A DNA stretch of 12,758 nucleotides, from assembly GCA_046483985.1 (NCBI GenBank), contig JAWOCD010000125.1, forward strand, positions 1-12,758, in the 5' to 3' direction. Source of the stretch: Promethearchaeia archaeon (GTDB lineage: Archaea > Asgardarchaeota > Lokiarchaeia > Sigyniarchaeales > SOKP01). Under the pieces are notes generated by a model. It searched no databases, was not told where the DNA came from, and was given only the letters and a program-made list of their open reading frames with translations. The position numbers were made by a program, and so were the translations under genes. Positions 1 to 12,758 of the stretch are shown one piece after another; position 1 is the stretch's first letter; every line of letters starts with the position of its first letter.

Positions 1-60
1 ATATAAAGTTGCTTAAAATTTCTCTATTTTGCTAAGCAAAAATCGTTTTAACGCAGAAGT

Positions 61-228
61 TTACTGATCTTTTTTTTGTTTTTTCAAAAATTGAGCCGCA
101 CGGTATAAATGCAACTCAAAAAGCATCTCATCTTGGGGAAATTCCTCCCGCAATTCTTTTACCAAATCCTCTTTTTCTTGATCCGGCAAATGCAATTCTT
201 TTAAGATAGTGTCAACATCATATAGCAT
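61..228 (-). CDS. Small 55-aa protein (MLYDVDTILKELHLPDQEKEDLVKELREEFPQDEMLFELHLYRAAQFLKKQKKDQ), probable partner/antitoxin of the upstream PIN gene
   Basis: Translated by hand and absent from the ORF track. ATG at 228 is preceded by a strong GAGGTGA RBS that overlaps the stop of the PIN pseudogene (TAGAGGTGATAATATG); TAA at 63-61. The antitoxin role is inferred from position and size. Confidence 0.8.
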   Translation of the reverse strand: MLYDVDTILKELHLPDQEKEDLVKELREEFPQDEMLFELHLYRAAQFLKKQKKDQ

Positions 229-238
229 ATTATCACCT

Positions 239-507
239 CTATAATTGAGGAGGGGCTAGAATTTCTATTGATTTATATCCTTCTTTTAAGTTAATCAAGT
301 TTACACCTAAACGAGTTTTTCTTTTAACTAAATGTTTAAAATTCCAACTTATTAAGATATCCAATGTATGAACTGTCGTTAAAGCAATTAGTAGAGCATC
401 ATTTTCATGCTTTTTAGGAATTAAACCTTCTTTAATGATTTATTCGTTAAACTCTTATCTTCTTGGTTTATTTCAACCTTTCTTCCCTTTTTCAAGAGTT
501 TTTGCAT
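239..507 (-). pseudogene. PIN-domain (VapC-like) ribonuclease toxin, 5'-truncated and frameshifted
   Basis: 436->239 reads IKEGLIPKKHENDALLIALTTVHTLDILISWNFKHLVKRKTRLGVNLINLKEGYKSIEILAPPQL*, carrying the DALxIA and SWNFKHxV motifs of this PIN subfamily. 507->439 reads MQKLLKKGRKVEINQEDKSLTNK in another frame. The two join through AAT AAA TC ATT, where a 1-nt loss is likely (NKY/IKEG). The N-terminal 'YLDTS' segment is absent. Confidence 0.85.
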
Positions 508-579
508 TTTTCTTTTTAACGTTGTTAAGATGCTCTGCTGATATCAGAGCAAACAAAGAGAATTAGAGTATTCAGATTA

Positions 580-610
580 GTTGAACTACTCACGCCTAAA
601 GGCGTGGGAG
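580..610. mobile_element. Probable IS200/IS605-family end remnant (subterminal hairpin)
   Basis: GTTGAACTACTCACGCCTAAAGGCGTGGGAG is a GC-rich stem (CACGCC/GGCGTG, TAAA loop, extendable by T-G and C-G) in an AT-rich background. It resembles the AACTACCC..CCTAAAGG..GGG end motif I recall for IS605/TnpB/IscB-type elements. No transposase is present in the window. Confidence 0.55.
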
Positions 611-619
611 ATAATTAAT

Positions 620-958
620 CTAAGATGTTATGATATTAATTAACTTATTAATTACTTCATCCATTTTCGTCTTTTTTATTCTCCCTATTGAACGAATAAT
701 GATCCGAACGTCGGCGGTAAAAATACGATTAGGACGAATATAACTTTTTGACTTATTTAGGGTGCCCTTCTTAAAATCTTTTTGAAAAAGAGGTATTGAA
801 TAATTATCCGATCTGCTTTTGCTTGTTATTTGACATAGAATGAGATCAAAACCTTTCAAGTCCTTTATTACTAAAGCAGGTCTTTTTTTATTAGTGCGGG
901 ATAGATCAGAAAAAGGAAAAGGAACTACGACGACATCGCCTTTTATAAGTCTTGCCAT
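620..958 (-). CDS. mazF: Type II toxin, PemK/MazF family endoribonuclease
   Basis: N-terminal KGDVVVVPFPFSD...KKRPALVI motif, then ILCQITS and SYIRPNRIFT; 112 aa. Confidence 0.92.
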   Translation of the reverse strand: MARLIKGDVVVVPFPFSDLSRTNKKRPALVIKDLKGFDLILCQITSKSRSDNYSIPLFQKDFKKGTLNKSKSYIRPNRIFTADVRIIIRSIGRIKKTKMDEVINKLINIITS

Positions 959-1113
959 GCCTTATCTTCCTCTGGACTTAGCCAATCCTTCTTAAGACTG
1001 GATTCACTCATCATTGAGTTTTCCATATTTTCTAAAAAAGTTTTGGCTTTAGCATATGAAGAAGCTTTTTTTTCTTTGTTTTCCCTATCTTCTTTGGAGA
1101 ACAATCTTTTCAT
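943..1113 (-). CDS. Cognate antitoxin of the MazF/PemK toxin (56 aa, start revised from 1251 to 1113)
   Basis: C-terminal SESSLKKDWLSPEEDKAWQDL motif typical of small antitoxins upstream of PemK toxins. A GGAGGT RBS precedes ATG 1113, and the gene overlaps the toxin start by 16 nt. Confidence 0.8.
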   Translation of the reverse strand: MKRLFSKEDRENKEKKASSYAKAKTFLENMENSMMSESSLKKDWLSPEEDKAWQDL

Positions 1114-1524
1114 TTTTTTAAGACCTCCGATAGTTAGACAATAGTTTTTAATTACACTATAAATATCTTCTTTCTTTTTAATAAATTTATCGATTTTTAT
1201 CAATAATTTCCATTTGAAGCTTAGTGAAAATCGAATGAGTTTTTGGATCATAAGGTAAAATCAGCAGCGAAAAAAGATGAGATTTCCACTAAAAAAGATG
1301 CTCACAAAAATCGCATAAGTGTAGAAGACTCCAGAACAGGAAAGATATTTTTCTTAGAGATTAAAGATTCCTACACGGTTAGAGAAATATAGCCTAACTT
1401 CTCCAAGTTTAAATCCAAGAAATAATTGGATTCCATAATATCCGAAAGGGTCAGAAAGGATAAAAACTGCTTATATTCTTGATTGTGGATTAGGATCAAA
1501 AAATTTGGGATTTGGGTTTGATAT

Positions 1525-2061
1525 TTAGGAAAGTGTGGGTTCTGATGTCTTTTCTATGTTTCTTTTAATCTTATTTTTTAAGGATCTGTACAAAAAAATC
1601 GGGATCGTAAAAAGAATAAAAATCATCACTAATCCTAGTATTAATGAAAAGAAAGCATATATAGAAGATCCTGACCAGAGAATAGTTATATATCCAAAAT
1701 AAAAAAAACCAAAATATCTCAAGACATTAGAAATGATCAGCAACAATAATACGATATTAATCCATTTTTTGATATTTGTAAGATTGTTATCTATTCCTTT
1801 TGTAATTTCCGAATGGATTTTAAAATTAATACCCAGGGGAACAGAAAGAAATATAAGACTTTCAATAAGAACCCCAGCAATGAGATTTCCGATAAGATAT
1901 CCTAAAAAAAAAGAGCAATAAAAGATACCCATAAATATAGCAGATAATATGCTAGGTAGCCGAACAGGTAAGAAGAAGAGCAGAGAAAATACATTACCCA
2001 ATGCCAGATAGGGAAAAGCTTTCAGATTTTGATTTTTTATTTCTTCAATATTTCCCATCAT
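1525..2061 (-). CDS. Hypothetical integral membrane protein (about 4-5 hydrophobic segments)
   Basis: 178-aa ORF with long hydrophobic stretches and a basic C-terminal tail; TATA-like TTTATATA upstream at 2133-2126. No family recognised. Confidence 0.65.
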   Translation of the reverse strand: MMGNIEEIKNQNLKAFPYLALGNVFSLLFFLPVRLPSILSAIFMGIFYCSFFLGYLIGNLIAGVLIESLIFLSVPLGINFKIHSEITKGIDNNLTNIKKWINIVLLLLIISNVLRYFGFFYFGYITILWSGSSIYAFFSLILGLVMIFILFTIPIFLYRSLKNKIKRNIEKTSEPTLS

Positions 2062-2125
2062 AATTATTCTTTCGGTAAATAATAAATATATTTCTAGATC
2101 TTTATCTAAATTTTCTCATTCATAA

Positions 2126-2133
2126 TATATAAA
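2126..2133 (-). promoter_or_regulatory. Putative archaeal TATA box for the membrane-protein gene
   Basis: The minus strand reads TTTATATA about 65 nt upstream of ATG 2061. Confidence 0.4.
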
Positions 2134-2212
2134 TACTTCTCTCACCATTTATTAAAATTCATTAAAGTTGATTAGATTTGTATAATCCATACTGAGTAAA
2201 ATTACTGGATAG

Positions 2213-2779
2213 TGCTGGAACAAAAATATTAAAAATATCGAAAATAAACATATTAATCCGAGAGAAATTCCTATTTTTGTAAGCATTTCATCGCCTCCGT
2301 ACTTAGAAGATATTAATGAGACCGTGAGCAAAATTTACGATTTAATAGATTCCCTAAATATAAGAACTATACTTTTAAAAGAAAAACATTTGGCATCACC
2401 GCGCTTTCACATTTAAAAGGATATATCCATATAAGTAAAGCCATCCAAACATCATACGGCGGCATAGTGGTTGGATTTCCAAGAGATTATTATAAGGATG
2501 ATAAACGGGAATTTTACGAGCCCACTTTATGGAATCATATAGAAGGTGCCATGATGTATCTCTCAGAAAAAACCATGCTGGTGATTCGGGATGTCAATAT
2601 TAAGAACGATAATGGTATATCGAGTATTGGGGATAAGATTATTTTACGGAAATCCATCAATAGAAGATTTCATCAACAAATCCGAAGAATTTAGTCAAAA
2701 ATTGAAAGAAACCTGTAAAGAACCAATGGAAGTTAAAGAATCATTTATGAAATTATTTTGTTACAGTTCCTTTTATTAG
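2213..2779 (+). pseudogene. Frameshifted TIR-like / nucleoside-2-deoxyribosyltransferase-like domain protein
   Basis: Three frames join into one protein. 2213-~2390 gives ...REIPIFVSISSPPYLEDINETVSKIYDLIDSLNIRTILLKEKH. ~2389-~2645 gives FGITALSHLKGYIHISKAIQTSYGGIVVGFPRD...YEPTLWNHIEGAMMYLSEKTMLVIRDVNIKNDNGI. ~2645-2779 gives YGNPSIEDFINKSEEFSQKLKE... The IFVS / GGIVVGF / WNHIEGAM / MLVIRD pattern fits the TIR/NDT beta-alpha layout. This explains track ORFs 2467..2694 and 2591..2779. Confidence 0.65.
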
Positions 2780-3355
2780 AAAGTTCAAGACATTATCTAT
2801 CAATTCCTCTTCAGAAATTTTTTTATCTGAATTGATCCACCACACAAAACTCTCAAGAATAACTGTTTGCCAAATATGAGAAGTTAAATCCGTATTTTGA
2901 TCCCGTATAAATCCAATTTCTAAAAGCCTAGAAATCATCTCATAAATTTCCTTTTTAAAAGAAGTTAATAATTCTCTTTTTTTTCTCAGATATTTGGGAC
3001 TAATACCACCCATTTGTTCGGCAAATAAGAGAGCTGCTTTGGTTTTTTCTTTATCACTGAAAATATTTAAATATTCTCTAATAAGATTTCTTAGGTTTGA
3101 TGTTCTAGGAATTTTATTCAATTTTGAAACTTCTCGCAGTCTTACAAGTAAAATTTCATATAAACTCTCGATAATTTCATCAAATAGTTGTTCCTTATTT
3201 TTAAAATAATGATAAAAATTACCGACAGATGTATTTGCATTATCGGTGATATCCTTGATCCTAGTATCAGGGAATCCTTTTTCATAAAAGACAGAAATGG
3301 CACTTGAGATTAGATTTTTTCTCATTTCCTTCCTTTGTTTTTCAAACCTATTCAT
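2753..3355 (-). CDS. TetR/AcrR family transcriptional regulator
   Basis: N-terminal HTH signature LISSAISVFYEKGFPDTRIKDITDNANTSVGNFYHYFKNKEQLF; 200 aa; divergent from the catabolic cluster. Confidence 0.95.
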   Translation of the reverse strand: MNRFEKQRKEMRKNLISSAISVFYEKGFPDTRIKDITDNANTSVGNFYHYFKNKEQLFDEIIESLYEILLVRLREVSKLNKIPRTSNLRNLIREYLNIFSDKEKTKAALLFAEQMGGISPKYLRKKRELLTSFKKEIYEMISRLLEIGFIRDQNTDLTSHIWQTVILESFVWWINSDKKISEEELIDNVLNFLIKGTVTK

Positions 3356-3425
3356 TTAATCATCAAATTTTGTATATGTTAGTTTAAAATACAATTTTTA
3401 AAATTCCTACCAATTTGTGATAACA

Positions 3426-3433
3426 TTTATATA
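3426..3433 (+). promoter_or_regulatory. Putative archaeal TATA box of the SCP2-ADC-oxidoreductase operon
   Basis: TTTATATA lies immediately upstream of the operator array; the expected start site about 25 nt downstream would fall within the operators. Confidence 0.55.
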
Positions 3434-3438
3434 CTAGT

Positions 3439-3496
3439 TTATTGAATGATCATTTAATGAATGAATGTTCAATCAATGAATGAATGTTCAATCAAT
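3439..3496. promoter_or_regulatory. Tandem TetR operator array, 19-bp period (two exact copies plus one degenerate)
   Basis: AATGAATGAATGTTCAATC is repeated exactly at 3456-3474 and 3475-3493. The core TGAATGAATGTTCAATCA (3458, 3477) matches its reverse complement at 14/18 positions. A degenerate copy, TTATTGAATGATCATTTA, sits at 3439, exactly one period upstream. Confidence 0.75.
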
Positions 3497-3593
3497 AATA
3501 TATGTCAATAATTGGATATCCATATTAAATATATGGGTTTTCAAGGGAACAAACAAAAAAAACAAAATAAATAACTAAAAAATGTGATTTAAT

Positions 3594-4049
3594 ATGGTAA
3601 AATTTGAAGAATTAAAAGAAGATGGGAAAAAATTCGCCTCAAGTTTTTGTCAAGCTTTAAATGAAAATGAGGATTATGAAGAAGCCGGAAAAGGTTGGAA
3701 AGGAGCATTACTCATGGAAATGAAAGCATGTGGTGAAGTTGAAGATGACGTTCGAGCATTTATGGATCTTGAAGACGGAAAGTGCAGAGAAATAAAGTTA
3801 TTGGGACCAGAGGAAGATCTTCCAGAAGAACCCGTAATGAAAATAACGGGCAAAATGGATTTATGGAGAGAATTGGCATTTCAGAGAAAAGATCCAATTC
3901 AATGTTTAATGACTGGATTATTAGAACTTGACGGAGACATGGCGCTAGCAATGAAATATTCACGAGCGGCATTAGAATTAGCTAATACGGCTGAAAATAC
4001 GGATAGGACATTATTAACTAAATTTGATTTAGGAGATGGAGAGGAATGA
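3594..4049 (+). CDS. SCP2 sterol/lipid-binding domain protein (acidic)
   Basis: FCQALNENEDYEEAGKGWKG, FMDLEDGKCRE and DPIQCLMTGLLELDGDMALAMKY match the archaeal-type SCP2 pattern. Confidence 0.85.
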   Translation: MVKFEELKEDGKKFASSFCQALNENEDYEEAGKGWKGALLMEMKACGEVEDDVRAFMDLEDGKCREIKLLGPEEDLPEEPVMKITGKMDLWRELAFQRKDPIQCLMTGLLELDGDMALAMKYSRAALELANTAENTDRTLLTKFDLGDGEE

Positions 4050-4064
4050 TGGTGAGAGTTAAAA

Positions 4065-4802
4065 ATGAGTGATTATGAACAACAGATAGATTATTCCATG
4101 CCACGTCAGTGTGGACTTTATCCTCCTCCACCCTATATTTACCCTAACATGCGTGCAATCTTGGTTATAGTTCAATGTAAGCCGGAAATTAAAAGGAAAT
4201 ACTTACCTCCTGAATTTGAACCAATAGAATATGGTCTCGATCTCGTGTTTATCACAGAATATCCTGAGTCTAATCTTGGACCCTATAATGAAAGCTTGAT
4301 CATGTTAAACTGTAATTATAAGGGAAATCCAGGTGCTTTTGTGTTCAACATCTATGTAGATTCAGAAGAGGCACTCACGGCTGGAAGGGAAGTATATGGC
4401 TATCCCAAGAAGATGTGTGACATCAGACTATCTGAAATTCAAGACAATAAGGTAAACGGATCATTGACGAGAAAGGGAAAAACATTCTTAAAGGTAGAGG
4501 TAGAACTGACGAAGAGAGCTCCGGGCATGGATCCCAGCGATATGATCGCAAACATGCCTTTATATAACTTAAAACTGATTCCAGATGTTGCTGATAATTC
4601 GAAACCTATGGTCCGCCAACTGACATCAACTACTTTATCATGGGATGTAAAGAAGCAAATAGGTGCTGATACAAGTTACCTTAAAACGGAATATTCTAAA
4701 TACGATATTTGCCACAAAGTCTTAAAAGATGCCCGCATAAATATGGGCGCGCTTTATGTAGAATGTGATCAGACGCTTCCGAATGGAAAGGTCTTGAAAT
4801 AA
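4065..4802 (+). CDS. Acetoacetate decarboxylase (ADC)-family protein
   Basis: PPPPYIY, LGPYNES and YVDSEEALTAGREVYGYPKKM with the Schiff-base Lys-Lys motif (4407-4412), plus NLKLIPDV...VRQLT; GGTGA RBS upstream. Confidence 0.92.
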   Translation: MSDYEQQIDYSMPRQCGLYPPPPYIYPNMRAILVIVQCKPEIKRKYLPPEFEPIEYGLDLVFITEYPESNLGPYNESLIMLNCNYKGNPGAFVFNIYVDSEEALTAGREVYGYPKKMCDIRLSEIQDNKVNGSLTRKGKTFLKVEVELTKRAPGMDPSDMIANMPLYNLKLIPDVADNSKPMVRQLTSTTLSWDVKKQIGADTSYLKTEYSKYDICHKVLKDARINMGALYVECDQTLPNGKVLK

Positions 4803-4840
4803 GTTAAGATCATTATTATAAAATAAAAATAAAAACAGAT

Positions 4841-6361
4841 TTGAAAAAAATGAACGCTATTCAAAATGCTTTTGGTAAAATAGAAGATATTGTTGGAACA
4901 AAATATGTATCCACCGCAGAACCCATCCTTTATTCCTATTCAATGAATTGCGATTCAGTAATGCAAGGCTTTCCAGATATTGTCGTTCGACCAAGTTCTG
5001 TCGAATCTATCTCTCAAATCATGAAAATTGCGAATGATTTAAACATCAAAGTAATCCCCCGGGGAGGGGGGGCAGATTTAACAGGCGGAGCAAAACCAAT
5101 TGGAGATGGAGGAATTGTAATTGATTTAACCAGAATGGATAAAATATTGGATATTGATGAAAGAAATCGCATTGTAACAGTAGAAACGGGAATTTCGTGG
5201 AGTCAATTATGTAATGCACTGAAAGATGTGGGTAGAGGTTTTTATACCGGTTCAACGGGGCCAGCTTCTGGATTTTCCGCAACTGTTGGGGGAGGGCTTT
5301 CTAACAACTCTCTTGGAGGTGGTGGGGCGGCAATGTACGGTAATGTTACAGAACAATGTGTCGGGCTTGAAGTTGTACTTCCTACGGGTGAGATAATATA
5401 TACCGGAGCTAAAGCAAATTCATTTTGTGACAAGCCATTTACCAGATATGGGTTAGGTCCCGATTATTCAGGATTATTTCTTGGTGATGTAGGAATTCAT
5501 GGTATAAAAACTAAAGCTTCATTAAAACTATATCCAATTCCGGAATATGCTGCTTATAGTACTTATGAGATTAATGGTTCTGAAAAAGAATCAGAAGCTG
5601 AAATAGCCACAAGTGTAATGACAAAATGGCAGCACAATGAGTTACCCCTTCATGATTTTTTCTATTACACTAAAGGGTATACAAAAATGTTAACAATGTT
5701 TGGAGTTAAAAAAGGTTTAGTTAATGCGGGAGTTGAGGGCAGTGTGTTATTCTATACAACCGTCGCAGATAGCCAAAAAGAATTGGATTATAATGTAGAA
5801 CGAATCGAAAAAATCGCTAAAGATGCTGAAATAAGGAAATTAGGTCCGACAATAGAAGAGGGTAATTTGGGAAAGTGGTTTTATGAAGAAGATGGTCGAT
5901 GGCAATGGGCAAATATTTATTGGGGATTATTGGGTCCGCAAGGCACCTCATTAGGAACTTGTTTAAAATGTCCGACTTATCACTTGCCAGATTATGTAAA
6001 ACTCTATGAAGATTTTGCCAACTCCCATACTAAAAAGATGCTTAAAGTGGGTGGTGGAGGCACTAATTTCATTGTACTTGGTATCCACCCGTGTTATATT
6101 GACGTAACGGGAGGAATCATGCTTCATACCAGTAAAAAGGACAGGGAAATGCAATATGAATTGTGGAAAGAACTGCTTATTGCTCAAATAAAGGAATTAG
6201 GAGGTATCCATTATTGGATGGGAGAAATAATTGGAAGATCTTTGGTTGATTCTGGTGCTTTAACACCTGAATATTATGATTTTATGATTTCAGTAAAAAA
6301 AGCCCTCGATCCCAAGAAAATCCTTAGTCCCGGTAAATTCTATTTAGGAGAAAGATATTAG
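4841..6361 (+). CDS. FAD-binding oxidoreductase (VAO/PCMH fold; GlcD/D-lactate dehydrogenase/ADHAP-synthase superfamily)
   Basis: PDIVVRP, PRGGGADLTGG, ATVGGGLSNN, GLEVVLPTGEI, LFLGDVGIHGIKT and C-terminal KKALDPKKILSPGK. The start is TTG 4841 or ATG 4850. Confidence 0.93.
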   Translation: MKKMNAIQNAFGKIEDIVGTKYVSTAEPILYSYSMNCDSVMQGFPDIVVRPSSVESISQIMKIANDLNIKVIPRGGGADLTGGAKPIGDGGIVIDLTRMDKILDIDERNRIVTVETGISWSQLCNALKDVGRGFYTGSTGPASGFSATVGGGLSNNSLGGGGAAMYGNVTEQCVGLEVVLPTGEIIYTGAKANSFCDKPFTRYGLGPDYSGLFLGDVGIHGIKTKASLKLYPIPEYAAYSTYEINGSEKESEAEIATSVMTKWQHNELPLHDFFYYTKGYTKMLTMFGVKKGLVNAGVEGSVLFYTTVADSQKELDYNVERIEKIAKDAEIRKLGPTIEEGNLGKWFYEEDGRWQWANIYWGLLGPQGTSLGTCLKCPTYHLPDYVKLYEDFANSHTKKMLKVGGGGTNFIVLGIHPCYIDVTGGIMLHTSKKDREMQYELWKELLIAQIKELGGIHYWMGEIIGRSLVDSGALTPEYYDFMISVKKALDPKKILSPGKFYLGERY

Positions 6362-6370
6362 GTGAAAAAA

Positions 6371-7624
6371 ATGAGTGGAGAAAAAGAAAAAAAATTAAAA
6401 TACTTAACAGAACTTAAAGATGCGGCTTTATCTTGTGTCCATTGCGGACAATGTAGAGTTCCCCAATGGCCAGTAAAGGGAATATACGATGTGTGCCCCG
6501 TGTATAAAACGGAGATTACGCCAAAATTTGAACCGTTTTTTTCTCGGGGAAAAAATGTAATCTTAAAAGGCTTGTTTTGGGGCGATCTTGGTTTAAGTAA
6601 AGAACTTAGCGAGATAATTTATCAATGCAGTCTATGTGGGGCATGTGAAGAATTCTGCTTCAATTCGCATAATGAAAATATTGCCTTTTCTCAAGAAGAA
6701 TGGATGAAGCAAGTTGATGTATATGAAGCGTTAAGAGCGGATTTGGTTGAGGCTGGTTATGCTCTTGATTCACATACCGAAATGAATCAAGCAATGGTCG
6801 ATTTGTTAAATCCTTATCAAAGGGATAATCGAAAAAAAGAAGAATGGACTAAAGAATTAGATTTCAAGATAAAGAATGCAAGTCAAGAAAAAAGCGATTT
6901 ATTATATTTTGTCGGATGTACGGCCGCTTTAACACCACAGATCCGTGAAGTTGCTATCGCAACTGCGAAAATCTTACATAAACTGAATATAGATTTTTCG
7001 ATTTTCGGTGAGAGCGAAGTGTGCTGTGGAAGTGTTGCAATGCGTACAGGCGATAGAAAACGGTTTGAGGAGGTCGCCTCCAAAAATATAGAATTGTTTA
7101 AGGAAAGCGGAGTGAAAACCATCATTACCAGTTGTGCTGGTTGTTATCGAACGCTTAAACTAGATTATGCTGACTTTCTTGAGGATTTAGAGATTGAGGT
7201 GCTGCATACCATTGAATTTCTTATTAGAATTTTGGATGAAAAGGACATTCAGCTCAAAAACTTAGGATATTCAGTGACTTATCATGATCCATGTCATACT
7301 GGAAGACATATGGGAGATGATGCTTTATATGATGAGCCTAGAAATATCTTAAATAGAATATGTAATCTCAGTGAGATGAAAACAATTCGAGAAGGGGCAA
7401 TGTGTTGCGGTGCGGGAGGCGGTATAAAAAAGGCATTTCCAGAGCTTTCCCTAGAAATGGCAAAAAATAGACTTGAAGAAGCAGAGGCCACAGGCGCCAA
7501 ATTCTTGGTTAGTACTTGCCCATTTTGTTTTAGAAACTTATCTGATGCCATAAATGCGTCAAACTCTGAAATTAAAATGGTGGATTTAGTCAATTTAATC
7601 TTGGAGGGTTTAGATGAAGAATGA
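6371..7624 (+). CDS. (Fe-S)-binding protein with two [4Fe-4S] motifs and two CCG domains (GlpC/GlcF/HdrD-like)
   Basis: CVHCGQC..CP and CSLCGACEEFC; YFVGC..EVCCGS..TSCAGC; TYHDPCH..MCCGAGGG..STCPFC. Start moved from GTG 6362 to ATG 6371 because AGGTGA (6360-6365) is a well-spaced RBS overlapping the upstream stop. Confidence 0.93.
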   Translation: MSGEKEKKLKYLTELKDAALSCVHCGQCRVPQWPVKGIYDVCPVYKTEITPKFEPFFSRGKNVILKGLFWGDLGLSKELSEIIYQCSLCGACEEFCFNSHNENIAFSQEEWMKQVDVYEALRADLVEAGYALDSHTEMNQAMVDLLNPYQRDNRKKEEWTKELDFKIKNASQEKSDLLYFVGCTAALTPQIREVAIATAKILHKLNIDFSIFGESEVCCGSVAMRTGDRKRFEEVASKNIELFKESGVKTIITSCAGCYRTLKLDYADFLEDLEIEVLHTIEFLIRILDEKDIQLKNLGYSVTYHDPCHTGRHMGDDALYDEPRNILNRICNLSEMKTIREGAMCCGAGGGIKKAFPELSLEMAKNRLEEAEATGAKFLVSTCPFCFRNLSDAINASNSEIKMVDLVNLILEGLDEE

Positions 7625-7646
7625 TTGATAAGAAGGGAGGGGAACT

Positions 7647-8066
7647 ATGAAAGAAGGTCAAAAAGATACGGTGCTTTCTCTTTTTATTCGTTCCCTTAAA
7701 GCTATAATCGAAAAAAAGCGAAAGAATCCTAAATATGAGAAAAAACTAAATAAGTTTAACGGAAAGGTAAATTTTGGCTTAGAAATTGAAAAGGAAAGAT
7801 ACATCTGGTTTCATTTGATTTCTAACAATAAGGTAGTAGAAATTAATAAGGGAAGATTAGAGGAAGATTATGATTTGGAAATATTGTCCGTACCTGAGGA
7901 CTTAATGTTCTTTACTAATGGTGAAAACTCATTAATTCACATGCTTTTTAAAAAAAATAAATTTGGGAAGAGAAAATTGCGCATTAATAAAGGTACTACC
8001 GGCAGAAACTTAAAGAAATTGATAAAACTCCCAAGTATTTTAAGAGTGGATAATGGAAAAATATAA
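7647..8066 (+). CDS. Basic small protein, probable divergent SCP2-like fold
   Basis: GGAGG RBS. The pattern VNFGLEI..YIWFHLISNNKVVEINKGRLEEDYDLEILSVPEDLMFFTNGENSLIHML..KLRI...NLKKLIKLPSIL follows SCP2 strand/helix order. The fold call is an inference. Confidence 0.6.
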   Translation: MKEGQKDTVLSLFIRSLKAIIEKKRKNPKYEKKLNKFNGKVNFGLEIEKERYIWFHLISNNKVVEINKGRLEEDYDLEILSVPEDLMFFTNGENSLIHMLFKKNKFGKRKLRINKGTTGRNLKKLIKLPSILRVDNGKI

Positions 8067-8094
8067 AATAAAAATAAAAAAGAGGTGAAAAGAT

Positions 8095-8817
8095 ATGATA
8101 AATCAGATTGATCTGAGTCTTATTGGATGGATAAATGGAATTTCAGCCACTTTAGTCGTTTCTTGTGCTGCGATATTCGGATTATTGATGGCAGCCCAAT
8201 CTAAAGATAAAAACTCAAATTTGCTTATGTTTGGAGGCCTTATGGGATTTTTCGCAGGAATGATGTGGTTAGGACCTACTGCAGACTTTTTTTCAGTAAT
8301 AATAACAGGAAAAAATTTACCTAATGAATATGTCTATGGAATTCTTACTTTTATGTGGGTTCTTCCGCTTCTTGTAGTTACCATGTTTCTTGGCGGAGAA
8401 TTGATGCTTACAAAGAAAAATAAATATATTTTAGTGATTATTTCTGCTATTCTTGGGATTATTTTCGAATTATTATTGTTTTTTGATGTGGAGGCTGCAA
8501 TAAAAGATTCTTCTGATCCAGGAGGGAGTGAGTTGTTTGATGCTTCAATTGAAATAGGACATCCAACTTTTTTTCTCATATTAGTAGGATTAGCACTACT
8601 TTTTGGATTTGTTGTAATAGGTGGATTCCGTCAAGCACTTAATACCACAGGAGCACTAAGAAAACGATTTATATATATGGCTTTTGCAATATTTTTATTC
8701 ATTCCCATTGCTATTATCGATGCTTTTTTTGAGCCCGTAATAATAGTTCTTCTTATGCGGTTTCTAATGATTTTAGTGGCTTGGTTACTATACCTTAGTT
8801 TGAAAATTAAAATTTAG
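8095..8817 (+). CDS. Stand-alone seven-transmembrane protein of unknown function
   Basis: GAGGTGA RBS; seven hydrophobic segments countable in 240 aa, with a polar loop (KDSSDPGGSELFDAS) between TM4 and TM5; no cytoplasmic output domain. Confidence 0.8.
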   Translation: MINQIDLSLIGWINGISATLVVSCAAIFGLLMAAQSKDKNSNLLMFGGLMGFFAGMMWLGPTADFFSVIITGKNLPNEYVYGILTFMWVLPLLVVTMFLGGELMLTKKNKYILVIISAILGIIFELLLFFDVEAAIKDSSDPGGSELFDASIEIGHPTFFLILVGLALLFGFVVIGGFRQALNTTGALRKRFIYMAFAIFLFIPIAIIDAFFEPVIIVLLMRFLMILVAWLLYLSLKIKI

Positions 8818-8842
8818 TATTTTTTCTTTCTTTATCTTTCTT
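8818..8842 (+). terminator. Putative archaeal oligo-T terminator
   Basis: TATTTTTTCTTTCTTTATCTTTCTT directly follows the TAG of the last operon gene. Confidence 0.5.
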
Positions 8843-8848
8843 CATATA

Positions 8849-8874
8849 ATCACTATATTAGAGAATATAGTGAT
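8849..8874. repeat. Perfect 11-bp inverted repeat
   Basis: ATCACTATATT-AGAG-AATATAGTGAT lies between the convergent transcription units. Confidence 0.8.
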
Positions 8875-8973
8875 AATCTTTAAAAAAACATCAAAAACCT
8901 TTTTTGTGTTTGAAAAAAAAGGGATACTTATGATGATCCATCCATAAGACCGGTTTATAGTCATAAACGAAGT

Positions 8974-9021
8974 GAAGAAAAAATGGAAGAAAAAAGGGAA
9001 GAGAAAACAGAAAACTTCCAT
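8974..9021 (-). terminator. Putative pyrimidine/oligo-T terminator of the ABC operon
   Basis: After the permease stop, the minus strand reads ATGGAAGTTTTCTGTTTTCTCTTCCCTTTTTTCTTCCATTTTTTCTTC: T-runs plus an ATGGAAG/CTTCCAT inverted repeat. Confidence 0.45.
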
Positions 9022-9030
9022 AGATTGCCT

Positions 9031-11478
9031 TTATCCTATGTATTCCGTCTGGACTTGCTTATAGAGGTTTCTACTGTAGACATATTTCATACCGGATCGA
9101 CCAGCCCATAAAATAACCAAAATCGGTACTATCATAGTTGCGATATATACCCATAAAGGTATAAAAAGAGACACCGCAAAATAATCTTCATACAACGATA
9201 ATAACCATGTTCCTACGAATGGAGTCAACACCAATGAGATACCTATCGATAATAGAAGAGGTAAAAGATTTTCTGATATAATGGTCTTATAGATGTTTCG
9301 CTTTTTGTAACCTAAAGACCGTAATATGCCATATTCGGACTCATGATCTCCAATTGACATGAGAGTTGCATTATATAAAATAAAGAATGCAACGATTGAA
9401 GCAAACGCAATAAGAATTCCCATGAAAGGGATTAACATGTCAGCATAATAACTGATATCATCCACCATATCTTCAATATCTTGTACAAGTATTACATTAT
9501 TATCTACATCATAAATATCGCTTATTATCTCCTTTCGGTCTTCTCTTGATAATCCGGATTCAAACTCAACATAGAGATTATTGGCCTTCCCCTCCTTATT
9601 CATAAATTCCCCAAAAGCATCTAAATTTATGTAAGAAACTGCCATAATCTCGTCTGAAACGCCTACAATCTTGAATTCTTCTTCTTGTCCCATCGGGCTC
9701 GTAAAATTTACCATTTGCCCGATTTCAAGTTCCATTCGATTCATAATAGTAAGACAGACCACTACCTCCTCATCATTTTTGAACAATCTGCTCTCTTCTC
9801 CTTTAAACTCAACTAGTTTATAGTCATGCATGGAAAAGTTACGGTATAATCCCAAAACATGGGTATTTAATTCATCAATATCTTCCTTCTTGGGATTTTC
9901 CATGATGACAGGCGATTTAAGTGCGTAATCGAGGTTTGCGAGATCATCAATATCTTCAATTTTAGTAGTTATTTCATCGTCAAACTCAACAGCTGATGAT
10001 AACTCTATAGATGCATCCCATGTTTCTGTTTCATATATCTTTTCATTTACCGTATAGTCAATTGAGGTAGCCATCACTAAAGATGATGCAACGATTAAAA
10101 GCGAAAAACCAATCCCGATCAAATTAAGAAAAGATTTTTTGGGATGTCTGAATAAATTTCGGAGTACGATCTTTGTGGATGCCTTTCTCTTAGATGTTTG
10201 CTTCTTATGGGACATTCGTGAATAGAGCTTTTCTTTTTTATATAATAGATCGGACATATCTCTTTTCAATAATTTTCGAATTGCCGGGAAGATTGAAATT
10301 AACGCTAATCCCATACATAAGACAAAAGAACCCCAGAGAAATTTAAATTCAAATGGATAAAAGAACACAACACCTAAGATTTCGGACGAAAATTCTATAA
10401 ACATCCCGACCATCATCAAATAACCGAATAAAGCACCGATTATGGACGCAATCACACTAATTAGAAGAACCAAGACGAAAAAAGATTTATAAATATCTTT
10501 TTTTCTATAGCCCAGAGAGGAAAGCGTTCCCATTTGTTGTTTTTGATTTATTGCAAACCGCATAAAGATAGACAGGCAGGAAGTAAAAGCCATGATTAAT
10601 GCGAGTACCATAAATACGGTCATAAATTCCGCAGATCCCTCTAAATCTGCCTCCACCATTCTCCAAGCATAACTTTCTTCGAATGGAGTGCTTGATTTTC
10701 GGATGATCCCCTCTTCCTCGAATACATCTTCAATCTCCTCATTTACGCTTTTAGCATCAAAACCTTCTTGAATAGTCACAGACAGCTCATTGTAATTAAA
10801 ATTAGTATACGGTTCAAACTGATCAGGTGAATATGTATCTATGAGATCTCGGAGCACAGTTCGATTTAAAAGTGCAACCCCCATAGTACCATGAACCGGA
10901 AATAACACTTCGGGTAAGGTATTAACCATCACGAATTCCATAGAAAAGAAGGAACCTTTAATATTAAATTCTGTTCCTCCTAACGCTCCTACAGTTAAAT
11001 CCTCTCCTACATCGATTTCGTCATTGTTTTCGACAAATCGTTTGGATAAGATAATCGAAAAGTTATCATCCGGTTCCAAATTCTTGCCATCTTCTATTTC
11101 ATAGGAATAAATATCCATATTGTGAGTATCATTAAAATCTTCAGTCACATCAACACCCACTAAACGAATCTGTAGGGTTTCCTCTCGACCTTCAATTTCT
11201 AGAGGAAACTGGACAACCAGCCTTCCTTGAATGTCATCTACACCATCGACATCCGCAATCTCATCGATAAAACTTGAATTAAATCCGGATGTCTCATAGG
11301 TGTAATCGGCGGCATTTGCATCTTCATAAAAACCTCGAAACACGGGTAAGATATCCGTGGACATAAAAAACATTGAAAGCACAAATCCAATACATAAACC
11401 TAAGATAAGGATAACTACAATCCCTCGTTTTCCCATTTGTTTTAGATCCCGTATCGGTTTTAAATAAAGTTTTTTCAT
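9031..11478 (-). CDS. ABC transporter permease, MacB/FtsX family (two fused repeats)
   Basis: 815 aa with two repeats of TM + large extracytoplasmic domain + 3 TM. FtsX motifs QQMGTLSSLGYRKKDI and SEYGILRSLGYKKRNI; GGAGGT RBS. Confidence 0.92.
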   Translation of the reverse strand: MKKLYLKPIRDLKQMGKRGIVVILILGLCIGFVLSMFFMSTDILPVFRGFYEDANAADYTYETSGFNSSFIDEIADVDGVDDIQGRLVVQFPLEIEGREETLQIRLVGVDVTEDFNDTHNMDIYSYEIEDGKNLEPDDNFSIILSKRFVENNDEIDVGEDLTVGALGGTEFNIKGSFFSMEFVMVNTLPEVLFPVHGTMGVALLNRTVLRDLIDTYSPDQFEPYTNFNYNELSVTIQEGFDAKSVNEEIEDVFEEEGIIRKSSTPFEESYAWRMVEADLEGSAEFMTVFMVLALIMAFTSCLSIFMRFAINQKQQMGTLSSLGYRKKDIYKSFFVLVLLISVIASIIGALFGYLMMVGMFIEFSSEILGVVFFYPFEFKFLWGSFVLCMGLALISIFPAIRKLLKRDMSDLLYKKEKLYSRMSHKKQTSKRKASTKIVLRNLFRHPKKSFLNLIGIGFSLLIVASSLVMATSIDYTVNEKIYETETWDASIELSSAVEFDDEITTKIEDIDDLANLDYALKSPVIMENPKKEDIDELNTHVLGLYRNFSMHDYKLVEFKGEESRLFKNDEEVVVCLTIMNRMELEIGQMVNFTSPMGQEEEFKIVGVSDEIMAVSYINLDAFGEFMNKEGKANNLYVEFESGLSREDRKEIISDIYDVDNNVILVQDIEDMVDDISYYADMLIPFMGILIAFASIVAFFILYNATLMSIGDHESEYGILRSLGYKKRNIYKTIISENLLPLLLSIGISLVLTPFVGTWLLSLYEDYFAVSLFIPLWVYIATMIVPILVILWAGRSGMKYVYSRNLYKQVQTEYIG

Positions 11479-11494
11479 TTCTTTATTACCTCCG

Positions 11495-12193
11495 TTAATT
11501 ATGTTCGGTTATTCTCCCATCATGGATGTGGATTTCTTTAGCGGCTAATTTTTCTACGATGAGTTTGTTATGAGTGACAATTATAAAGGTGGCGTTATGT
11601 TCTTCGCTTAGATTTTTAATTAATTTAAGGACCTTGTCGCCTGTTTTTTCGTCCAAATTTCCCGTGGGTTCATCACACAATACCATGAAATTACCATCAG
11701 TGAATGGTTGTTTAGCAAGTGCTCGAGCAACTCCCACTCTTTGTTGCTCTCCCCCGCTTAGTTGGGACGGAAAATGATTAACTCGATCTGCTAATCCAAC
11801 ATCTTCAAGATAGCGTTTTGCGATTTTTTTTACTTCTTTTTTAGAGCCTAACATTTCAATGGCAACTTCTACATTTTCCATAGCATTTAGAGTGGGTAAG
11901 AGGTTAAAAAATTGGAATATAAAACTTACATTCTTCCTTCGGTATCCTGCCAATTCTGCCGTAGAAAAATCTTGTATTTCTTTCCCGAATATATTAACAG
12001 TTCCGTTGGTAGGGGTGGTGATCCCTCCTAATACATTAAGCAAGGTTGTCTTTCCCGCTCCAGAAGGACCTAGGATTGCAATCAATTCACCAGCAGCCAT
12101 TTTTAAATCAATATCATCTAAAGCTTTTACCGTGGTTTCTCCCATTTGATAATGTTTTGAAACTCTATCTAATGATATAATATCCTTTTTCAT
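11495..12193 (-). CDS. ABC transporter ATP-binding protein, LolD/MacB type
   Basis: Walker [11 protein letters not shown]-loop FIFQFFNL, signature LSGGEQQRV, Walker [13 protein letters not shown]-loop VTHN. Confidence 0.96.
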
Positions 12194-12236
12194 AACGAAT
12201 TAACAATTTGTATTAATTAGTATTAGATAAAACTCT

Positions 12237-12244
12237 TATATAAA
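12237..12244 (-). promoter_or_regulatory. Putative archaeal TATA box of the ABC operon
   Basis: The minus strand reads TTTATATA after a purine-rich BRE-like stretch (GAATAAAGA), about 44 nt upstream of ATG 12193. Confidence 0.55.
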
Positions 12245-12397
12245 TCTTTATTCTCTGTCAATATAAGAGATACACAGTCCAAAATAATTGGGAAATCTGA
12301 TTGAAATACAAATTACGGCAATTTGATAAGATATAAAAAATATGTAAATTACAAAAAAGCCGTAAATTATTTGTTCATTAAAAAAATATCTATCACC

Positions 12398-12758
12398 ATG
12401 GATAATCGTTTCAATGAAGATTTTGAAAGATTGATGAATTCGCTTTCGAGTCATATTTCCCATAAAATACTGTTATTATATTCTCACCAAGAAGGTTTTA
12501 ATCTCACCAGCACTTCACAGGAGATTAAAGAAAAAATATCCACCACGCAAGATCATTTAAATAAGTTATTAAGTCAGAGATTGGTCTATCGGATAGATAA
12601 AGATTATTTTTTATCTAGTTTTGGAGAATACCATCTCAGACAGCTTCAAAATCTAGCCCTTTTTGAAAAATCTAAATCTTTATTTGGCAAAATACCTAAA
12701 GGACTCATCCCTCCAGAAATCGTTGATAAACTCTGTCCAGCATTAGGGAATTGCACTA
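12398..12758 (+). CDS. Winged helix-turn-helix (ArsR-like, archaeal) transcriptional regulator, 3'-partial
   Basis: Missed by the ORF track because it runs off the window. It reads MDNRFNEDFERLMNSLSSHISHKILLLYSHQEGFNLTSTSQEIKEKISTTQDHLNKLLSQRLVYRIDKDYFLSSFGEYHLRQLQNL...IPPEIVDKL. HTH plus wing ending in YFLSSFG, with no stop to the window end. Confidence 0.82.
   Translation, partial: MDNRFNEDFERLMNSLSSHISHKILLLYSHQEGFNLTSTSQEIKEKISTTQDHLNKLLSQRLVYRIDKDYFLSSFGEYHLRQLQNLALFEKSKSLFGKIPKGLIPPEIVDKLCPALGNCT

Follow-up and report, generated by a model that had tools for sequence, protein, structure and literature searches.

A 12,758-nt stretch of contig JAWOCD010000125.1 of a Promethearchaeia archaeon (positions 1-12,758), called the window below, carries a cassette of six co-oriented genes (3594-8817, + strand) divergent from the gene for a TetR-family repressor. 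The four-gene core of this cassette, which encodes an acidic SCP2-domain protein (SCP2a), an acetoacetate decarboxylase (ADC)-family enzyme, a flavoprotein of the vanillyl-alcohol oxidase/p-cresol methylhydroxylase (VAO/PCMH) superfamily and an iron-sulfur (FeS) subunit, is conserved and has so far been seen only in Asgard archaea. A basic SCP2-fold protein (p139), a seven-transmembrane (7TM) protein and TetR are additions in the window and in the Helarchaeota genome Hel_GB_A. We tentatively propose, at somewhat less than an even chance, that the cassette serves the catabolism of a hydrophobic carboxylic acid, with delivery by SCP2, oxidation by the flavoprotein and FeS subunit, decarboxylation by the ADC-family enzyme and control by a fatty-acyl-responsive repressor. 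Our confidence goes no higher because we infer both the class of substrate and the order of the reactions.

Layout and conservation of the cassette

The open reading frames were found where the preliminary description had placed them. SCP2a (3594-4049; 151 residues, isoelectric point (pI) 4.4) is followed on the + strand by the ADC-family Schiff-base enzyme (4065-4802; 245 residues), the flavoprotein (4841-6361; 506 residues, with an alternative start possible at the ATG at 4850), the FeS subunit (6362-7624; 420 residues), p139 (7647-8066; 139 residues, pI 10.0) and the 7TM protein, TM240 (8095-8817; 240 residues), with gaps of 15, 38, 0, 22 and 28 nt; the TetR gene (2753-3355; 200 residues, TetR_N 51 bits) lies on the - strand. 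Purine-rich Shine-Dalgarno-like motifs (GGTGA, GGAG, GGGAGGGG and GAGGTGA) are located 5´ of four starts, and a T-rich tract is found 3´ of the 7TM gene, the last of the cassette. The FeS start codon abuts the stop codon of the flavoprotein, to which the FeS subunit probably is translationally coupled. The tight spacing and the gene order kept in other genomes argue for the operon-like cluster described initially. The domain calls made then for SCP2, ADC, the VAO-type flavoprotein and a protein with two CCG domains were reproduced with Pfam and NCBIfam models, while the 139-residue protein, also called SCP2, was recovered by predicted fold alone.

We examined conservation in a sample of 400 Asgard genomes, labeled by G numbers, with G000 for the window's own genome. 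An ADC orthologue was present in 26 genomes, and the order (SCP2)-ADC-FAD-FeS, with FAD (flavin adenine dinucleotide) denoting the flavoprotein gene, was present in 12. SCP2a is the first core gene in ten of these: G000, G009 (at two loci), G002, G052, G063 and G058 in the window's family, Hel_GB_A (G241) and G245 in two other families of the same class, and G233 and G234 (Freyarchaeum) in one family of another class. ADC-FAD-FeS without SCP2 was found in G005 and G060, which also belong to the window's family, where the order thus spans four genera. The homologues come from sources named Helarchaeota, Promethearchaeota, Sigynarchaeota and Freyarchaeum. The full seven-gene form, including TetR and its operator, recurs in Hel_GB_A, and one of the two G009 loci (G009:C51) has a six-gene form without TetR. 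Thus, profile searches and neighborhood comparison revealed the conservation on which the initial proposal of a gene system had depended and, because the synteny recurs in other genomes, the arrangement is not due to chance. Additionally, the flavoprotein orthologues form one clade (support 97/99) apart from the paralogues.

The cassette of Hel_GB_A (SUPS01000090.1; loci L052 and L049, which are the same) encodes proteins 62-81% identical to those of the window, from another GTDB family, and in the tree its flavoprotein groups within those of the window's family. This placement suggests either that the cassette has spread by horizontal transfer or that the genome is inconsistent in its taxonomy or binning. 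Genes for acyl-CoA ligases with long-chain models as their best NCBIfam matches were found near two relatives. In G016, such a gene, three genes for enoyl-CoA hydratases, a homocitrate/isopropylmalate-synthase-like gene and an SCP2-like gene surround the ADC orthologue, and in the second G009 locus (G009:C127) the ligase gene is directly upstream of the cassette.

In this lineage the flavoprotein family is strongly expanded, and one genome can give up to 15 matches (E ≤ 1e-20). The FeS gene follows the flavoprotein gene in the orthologues and directly follows it in most of the paralogues, which are 35-43% identical to the window's flavoprotein. A second cassette in the same genome (L021:4030-11441; G000:C87) consists of genes for a TrmB-like regulator, a glycyl-radical enzyme, FAD, FeS and ADC-like proteins, of which the FeS paralogue is 60% and the ADC-like protein 29% identical to those of the window. 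The glycyl-radical enzyme (854 residues) is of the PFL2/dehydratase type, with HypD, sulfopropanediol dehydratase and CutC as the nearest models. In G024 (L024), a flavoprotein paralogue and an ADC-like gene are about 7 kb apart. Since ADC-family and FAD genes lie near each other in distinct sets of paralogues, the flavoprotein-ADC link appears to be functional and not accidental.

Flavoprotein paralogues also form arrays, with four copies within about 37 kb in G024 (L024, L025; G024:C6:784000-823000), interleaved with four AMP-dependent ligases and a gene like those for old yellow enzyme (OYE)/2,4-dienoyl-CoA reductase, and three copies in tandem in G004 (G004:C3, L026). An FeS partner stands beside only some of the copies in these arrays.

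Predicted functions of the encoded proteins

The ADC-family protein scored 139.3 bits against Pfam ADC (PF06314; threshold 29.8) and matched the ADC structures 3c8w, 3bgt and 3bh2 in the PDB at E 4e-20 to 3e-10, with far weaker matches to Sbi00515 (4zbo; 1e-4) and MppR (2e-3). R30, E76, K115 and K116 are 100% conserved in 74 Asgard ADC orthologues. Upon alignment to 3bgt and 3c8w, K115 and E76 fall on the ADC residues and R30 is one position after ADC Arg29/30. These similarities suggest that the protein probably is an active Schiff-base beta-keto-acid decarboxylase. Judged by its sequence it is not an acetoacetate decarboxylase equivalog, and its substrate probably is larger than acetoacetate. 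The longer proteins checked for ADC fusions that might reveal partners included none, which is weak evidence.

The flavoprotein gave 119 bits with FAD_binding_4 (PF01565), and its AlphaFold2 model (predicted local distance difference test (pLDDT) score 81) has a D-lactate dehydrogenase (D-LDH) fold with a diverged cap. In VIA-align comparisons, the closest structures were mLDHD (Z 35; root-mean-square deviation 2.9 Å over 444 residues), LctD (Z 33) and D-2-hydroxyglutarate dehydrogenase (D2HGDH; Z 32), followed by vanillyl-alcohol and eugenol oxidases (VAO/EUGO; Z 30) and alkyl-dihydroxyacetone-phosphate synthase (AGPS; Z 28). The D-2-hydroxyacid dehydrogenases among these fold relatives include structures solved with C8 hydroxy acids. 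HMMER alignments stop before the cap. The cap by itself (residues 240-506) had no sequence match in the PDB at E < 0.1, and residues 240-470 had 18 matches among 1.84 billion representative proteins (E ≤ 1e-3). The preliminary description had named an ordinary lactate/glycolate dehydrogenase as one of the results that would speak against its proposal. Our sequence comparisons argue that the flavoprotein is not such an enzyme, because the best-scoring NCBIfam model, glcD (TIGR00387), reached 129 bits against a cut-off of 568, FAD-oxidase_C (PF02913) reached 19.3 bits against 21.2 and covered the C-terminal residues 475-499 only (the last 25 matched), and the cap is unmatched in the PDB.

As regards the His/His/Glu metal site and the catalytic loop His of the GlcD/D-LDH group, no His is invariant across the 21-member family alignment of orthologues and paralogues, while the orthologues keep H271, D421, H457 and Y458 and a conserved aromatic-rich set of cap residues that includes WQW354-356 and H457-Y458-W459. 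A profile alignment with p-cresol methylhydroxylase is full-length and places Tyr458 on the Tyr of the 'YR' pair, with Trp instead of the Arg. HYWMGE stands at the position of the active-site loop of GlcD/D-LDH enzymes, which in those enzymes reads GEHG. Some sources label relatives of the flavoprotein 'glycolate oxidase', and neither of two other VAO-type proteins checked from the same genome is a canonical GlcD. We considered whether the flavoprotein is an alkyl-DHAP synthase and rejected this assignment, given that AGPS ranks below D-LDH and VAO by fold and that a far better AGPS homologue is encoded elsewhere in the genome. That homologue, a candidate ether-lipid enzyme (L076:916-2397; G000:C32, about 64715-66196), is a 493-residue VAO-type protein with a GHHHGVG motif that matches 2uuu at E 5.6e-57.

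The FeS subunit contains the CCG domain (PF02754) twice (125.6 bits; C186/C221-C222/C258-C261 and C311/C348-C349/C386-C389) as well as Fer4_8, with ferredoxin-type motifs at C25/28/31/45 and C89/92/95/99. Among the NCBIfam models, TfrB scores highest (205.6 bits, cut-off 385; 1e-60), followed at a distance by GlpC (75 against 278) and GlcF (66.5 against 333), so that no named member (TfrB, GlcF, GlpC or DsrK) is matched at equivalog level. The nearest PDB chains are 9ojn and HdrB. The sequence has no predicted membrane segment and a grand average of hydropathy (GRAVY) of -0.26, as for a soluble, HdrD/TfrB-like subunit. No McrA domain (PF02249) was detected in this genome, which is 97% complete, or in 40 relatives, while control methanogens scored; a role with the coenzyme M (CoM)/coenzyme B heterodisulfide is therefore unlikely. 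For the same reason we discarded alkyl-coenzyme M oxidation, a candidate given that relatives are labeled Helarchaeota. To our knowledge, the conversion of alkyl-CoM to acyl-CoA is an unsolved step.

TM240 (GRAVY 1.17), from a family made up mainly of Asgard sequences, is an accessory that stands beside the core in three genomes only (the window's, G009 and Hel_GB_A). It had no Pfam or NCBIfam match. It falls in Promethearchaeota clusters of the ESM Atlas, and its predicted structure resembles HisKA_7TM (template modeling (TM) score 0.72) and TIR-fused Asgard proteins. No His is invariant in an alignment of seven of its relatives. We had considered the protein as a cytochrome-b-type anchor like those of HdrDE or GlpABC, and the lack of a conserved His, the sensor-like predicted fold and its position outside the core led us to reject this role. 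The transfer of electrons to a membrane carrier, as envisaged in the preliminary description, finds no support in these features or in the FeS subunit, which appears soluble. An Asgard cluster of 78 members has the same 7TM module fused to a TIR_2 domain, which suggests a signaling role for the module.

The initial claim of two SCP2 proteins stands for SCP2a by Pfam and for p139 at the level of the predicted fold, not of the Pfam score. SCP2a gave 37.7 bits with Pfam SCP2 (PF02036; gathering threshold 21.3; E 2.7e-9), and its closest relatives (at least 49% identity) mostly are encoded at the cassette. With 13.8 bits, p139 is below the Pfam SCP2 threshold; weak Pfam SCP2 matches were found for 8 of 20 p139 orthologues. 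An AlphaFold model built from these 20 orthologues (pLDDT 87) gave 25 Foldseek matches in the PDB at E ≤ 1e-3 (best 5e-5), almost exclusively of the SCP2 type: SCP2, SCP2-like, UbiJ-SCP2 and alkylsulfatase SCP2-like C-terminal domains, with probability 1.00 and TM scores of 0.5-0.6. On this model p139 is an SCP2-fold protein, and 'dual SCP2' holds at the fold level because the model matches SCP2 structures. We rejected the idea that p139 is a diverged copy of SCP2a, since profile-profile comparison found nothing (hhalign probability 0.1%) and the fold alone is common to the two.

The p139 gene adjoins the core in the window, at G009:C51 and in Hel_GB_A, and in G053 it is divergent from an SCP2a orthologue. 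In the window's GTDB family it is single-copy in 77 of 101 genomes and mostly far from flavoprotein genes. The six genes are not one evolutionary unit, because p139 is single-copy across the family and usually encoded elsewhere, and we regard it as an accessory outside the core. At the p139 loci inspected in 18 genomes (L031-L048), the gene usually is alone between genes for proteins of about 400 and about 209 residues.

The TetR repressor and its FadR-type boxes

The window's TetR aligned with the Bacillus FadR model NF053878 over residues 12-197 and with the B. subtilis FadR structure 3whb over residues 6-197 (E 1.8e-7). The intergenic region between the divergent genes is 238 nt long and contains a TATA-box-like sequence, TTTATATA (3427-3434, + strand), a putative promoter element by its sequence. 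A repeat array begins 5 nt after it. The array of three overlapping FadR-type boxes (3439-3498, no strand assigned) has a 19-bp period: a unit with TGAATGAATGTTCAATCA is present twice exactly (beginning at 3458 and 3477, with copies spanning 3458-3475 and 3477-3494), and a third, degenerate copy is at 3439-3456. Both exact copies have one mismatch to TGAATGAN4TCATTCA. With up to three mismatches, this pattern has eight matches in the window against 2.24 expected, and none of 200 shuffles reached eight. The repeat unit also is 16/21 identical to the operator of B. halodurans FadR, GATGAATGAATACTCATTCAT (PMC5397183). The operator array that the preliminary description had placed between TetR and the operon is thus present, and its pattern is enriched over shuffled sequence.

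Hel_GB_A encodes a divergent TetR at the same position that is 70% identical to that of the window, and a perfect TGAATGA-GCAT-TCATTCA box is found there directly after TTTTTATAT, at the same distance, with the remaining spacer diverged. A box 117-147 nt upstream of the first gene occurs only at these two TetR-carrying loci, and none was found at the 11 orthologous loci without TetR (0/11). The TetR control suggested initially is supported because box and TetR co-occur in two genomes, with the box in none of the TetR-less loci. We think that the cassette probably is repressed by a FadR-like TetR that responds to an acyl ligand; a box of the Bacillus FadR type suggests that the signal is a fatty-acyl compound.

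The same genome encodes a TetR paralogue (43% identical) beside an AMP-dependent ligase. This paralogue is in an apparent operon with the ligase (670 residues) and a 236-residue unknown protein (L072:7670-11196), and a perfect 22-bp palindrome, TGAATGAATGATCATTCATTCA, lies beside it (L072:7426-7447; G000:C119:14425-14446). A further box with two mismatches was noted near the paralogue, in a divergent promoter region facing a short-chain dehydrogenase/reductase gene (G000:C119).

Beyond the cassette, the window contains a convergent two-gene ATP-binding cassette (ABC) system (9031-12193, - strand) that encodes an 815-residue duplicated FtsX-type permease and an ATPase. The permease is MacB/LolCE-like, with weak matches, and the ABC pair is not kept beside the cassette in the other genomes examined. 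Ras-family GTPases also are encoded among the neighboring genes. Together with the source names of the homologues, they assign the window to the Lokiarchaeia/Helarchaeales group of Asgard archaea.

Proposed pathway, rival readings and known systems

In the scheme that we propose, TetR would bind the boxes just downstream of the TATA box and block transcription until a fatty-acyl ligand releases it. SCP2 would deliver a hydroxy acid of low solubility, for example a 3-hydroxy fatty acid, and the flavoprotein would oxidize the hydroxyl of this substrate to a ketone. Electrons would exit via the subunit with two [4Fe-4S] clusters and two CCG domains to a soluble acceptor, which may be a disulfide or a ferredoxin-like carrier, with no dedicated membrane anchor. 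The ADC-family enzyme would decarboxylate the beta-keto acid via a Schiff base on Lys115, yielding a methyl ketone and CO2. Circumstantial support for the lipid-processing theme of the preliminary description comes from the FadR-type box, from both SCP2 folds and from the acyl-CoA-ligase genes nearby, with long-chain models as their best matches.

This scheme is inferred in all its biochemistry, including the electron acceptor and the ligand of the repressor, and several observations weigh against it. D-LDH-fold enzymes are known for 2-hydroxy acids, not 3-hydroxy acids, a 2-oxo acid is no substrate for ADC-type decarboxylation, and SCP2 domains also serve non-catabolic roles. The ADC-family protein does not reach the cut-off of the NCBIfam ADC subfamily NF002614 (70 bits against 150), and the position of clostridial Glu61 is hydrophobic (V/I/L) in the orthologues, with a nearby D59 that is 99% conserved. 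TetR resembles FadR only weakly, with 47.6 bits where the cut-off is 200, and thus below equivalog level. As regards gene order, the ADC orthologue is away from the flavoprotein pair in 13 of its 26 genomes, 12 of which belong to one genus (g11). At the g11 loci (L061, L063-L071) it always is preceded by a gene for a 77-residue stand-alone Lrp/AsnC RAM-domain protein, with genes for a major facilitator superfamily (MFS) transporter, a class I/II aminotransferase and a nitroreductase nearby, a context that hints at amino-acid-derived keto acids. Additionally, one orthologous flavoprotein-FeS pair (G004) occurs without SCP2 and ADC.

The main rival, which we consider doubtful, is a route for 2-hydroxy and 2-oxo acids, with the flavoprotein oxidizing a hydrophobic D-2-hydroxy acid and the ADC-family protein acting as a Schiff-base aldolase, hydratase or dehydratase like MppR or Sbi00515. 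It would agree with a fold closest to mLDHD, LctD and D2HGDH (Z 32-35), with the presence of 2-oxo-acid aldolase-dehydratases in the ADC superfamily, to which the weak matches to 4zbo and MppR belong, and with the aminotransferase and RAM-domain genes near the g11 ADC orthologue, which suggest amino-acid-derived 2-oxo acids. However, true ADCs match the ADC-family protein much better (4e-20 to 3e-10) than Sbi00515 and MppR do (1e-4 and 2e-3), the protein keeps the Arg30, Glu76 and Lys-Lys pair of the decarboxylases, and the cap has no detectable sequence similarity to D-2-hydroxyacid dehydrogenases. An improbable alternative is catabolism of aromatic or phenolic compounds, in which a VAO/PCMH-like dehydrogenase would act on aromatic hydrophobic compounds, alkylphenol-type or other, that SCP2 would solubilize. 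The fold ranks closer to D-LDH than to VAO and EUGO, which still reach Z 30; the full-length profile alignment with p-cresol methylhydroxylase sets the invariant Tyr458 on the 'YR' Tyr, but the Arg of this pair is Trp here and VAO Tyr108 has no counterpart. Aromatics are frequent among the conserved residues of the cap, and the neighbors of paralogues include a glycyl-radical enzyme, OYE-type reductases and aromatic-acid-type MFS transporters. This glycyl-radical enzyme, however, is of the dehydratase/lyase type and not an aryl-acid decarboxylase or X-succinate synthase, and the FadR-type regulation and acyl-CoA-ligase neighbors point to aliphatic acyl compounds.

We find it quite improbable that the cassette is biosynthetic or homeostatic, with SCP2 presenting a membrane lipid or the precursor of an isoprenoid cofactor to enzymes, as for UbiJ/UbiT or in an AGPS-like ether-lipid reaction. 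A patchy distribution (12 of 400 genomes) would be unusual for core lipid biosynthesis, FadR-type repression is typical of catabolic genes, and the genome has the separate, much better AGPS homologue with its HHH motif (E 5.6e-57). On the other side stand the UbiJ-SCP2 domains among the fold matches of p139, the AGPS fold match at Z 28, the near-universal presence of the basic SCP2 gene in the family and, in genus g2, SCP2a homologues near a thiolase/DUF35 pair and a DAG-kinase-like gene. The least probable reading, to which we give very little weight, is an ordinary GlcD/GlcF-like D-lactate or glycolate dehydrogenase that is by chance a neighbor of unrelated SCP2 and ADC genes. Pairs of FAD and CCG proteins are common, glcD is the best NCBIfam model and the label 'glycolate oxidase' is in use for some relatives, yet the glcD score is far from its cut-off (129 against 568), FAD-oxidase_C covers only 25 terminal residues, and the cap has no PDB sequence match and 18 matches among 1.84e9 representatives. 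The synteny of ADC and SCP2 across several GTDB families and the repetition of the link in a paralogous system also argue against chance.

A more far-reaching reading, which we consider unlikely, is that Asgard archaea have a carrier-assisted anaerobic pathway of their own for the use of hydrophobic hydroxy acids, for example 3-hydroxy fatty acids derived from bacterial necromass. In such a pathway, the HYWMGE-type flavoprotein would pass electrons to a disulfide-type HdrD-like subunit, without a known cofactor in hosts that lack methyl-coenzyme M reductase, a true ADC-type enzyme would release a methyl ketone, and the acidic and basic SCP2 pair would shuttle the lipid between the membrane, with the 7TM protein as partner, and the enzymes.

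No known organisms are more closely related to eukaryotes than Asgard archaea, yet little has been learned of how they handle lipids and of the chemistry of their electron transfer; the cassette is a concrete gene set with which both can be tested. HdrD-like coupling in organisms without methyl-coenzyme M reductase poses the question of the natural electron acceptor, the two stand-alone SCP2-fold proteins of opposite charge are candidate archaeal lipid-transfer proteins, and the FadR-type box, placed after an archaeal TATA box, ties the TetR of an archaeon to an operator type of bacteria. If the carrier-assisted pathway is true, archaea have dedicated lipid-transfer proteins in the lineage closest to eukaryotes. 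Should the chemistry turn out to be ordinary, as for a hydroxy-acid dehydrogenase of new specificity, the cassette would serve mainly to improve the annotation of hundreds of Asgard 'FAD-binding oxidoreductase' genes. All the parts belong to known superfamilies, and dehydrogenases with FAD and CCG components are a known kind. Literature searches for the gene combination in Asgard archaea found nothing specific and, as far as these searches reach, there is no description of the flavoprotein subfamily, of the SCP2 and ADC proteins dedicated to it or of FadR-type control of this kind in an archaeon.

Among known systems, GlcDEF, the archaeal Dld-HdrD-type D-lactate dehydrogenases and the E. coli D-2-hydroxyglutarate dehydrogenase YdiJ share with the window's pair a VAO flavoprotein of the D-LDH fold, an FeS partner (separate or fused) with two [4Fe-4S] motifs and two CCG domains, and tightly coupled genes in the order FAD then FeS. 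The window's pair differs from them in a cap that is unrecognizable by sequence, with every curated cut-off missed widely, in its dedicated partners, SCP2 and ADC, and in the lack of a membrane or quinone-linked subunit. With the acetoacetate decarboxylases of C. acetobutylicum and Chromobacterium violaceum (3bh2, 3bgt), the ADC-family protein shares the Pfam domain, with about 180 residues aligned, as well as the Schiff-base Lys115, Lys116, Glu76 and an invariant Arg beside the Arg29 position, whereas its Glu61 position is hydrophobic and its gene context, with SCP2 and flavoprotein, is not solventogenic. SCP2a passes the Pfam threshold for SCP2/non-specific lipid-transfer proteins and p139 has their predicted fold. 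In contrast to SCP2 domains fused to a thiolase, dehydrogenase or sulfatase, the two here are stand-alone proteins of opposite charge, without detectable mutual similarity, that are encoded with a dehydrogenase and a decarboxylase.

A TetR-family fatty-acid regulator already is known in archaea, FadR of Sulfolobus acidocaldarius, on the account in PMC6449355. The window's TetR shares the TetR fold with the Bacillus/Thermus-type FadR (YsiA), an acyl-CoA-responsive repressor, and aligns, weakly, with Bacillus FadR over the full length; the half-sites TGAATGA/TCATTCA with a 4-bp spacer are the core of the B. halodurans FadR operator (PMC5397183), and the tandem arrangement of the window's boxes would be compatible with binding as a dimer of dimers. 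The window's TetR, by contrast, is no equivalog of FadR (47.6 against 200 bits), the genes that it is predicted to regulate are not those of beta-oxidation, and its boxes stand behind an archaeal TATA box.

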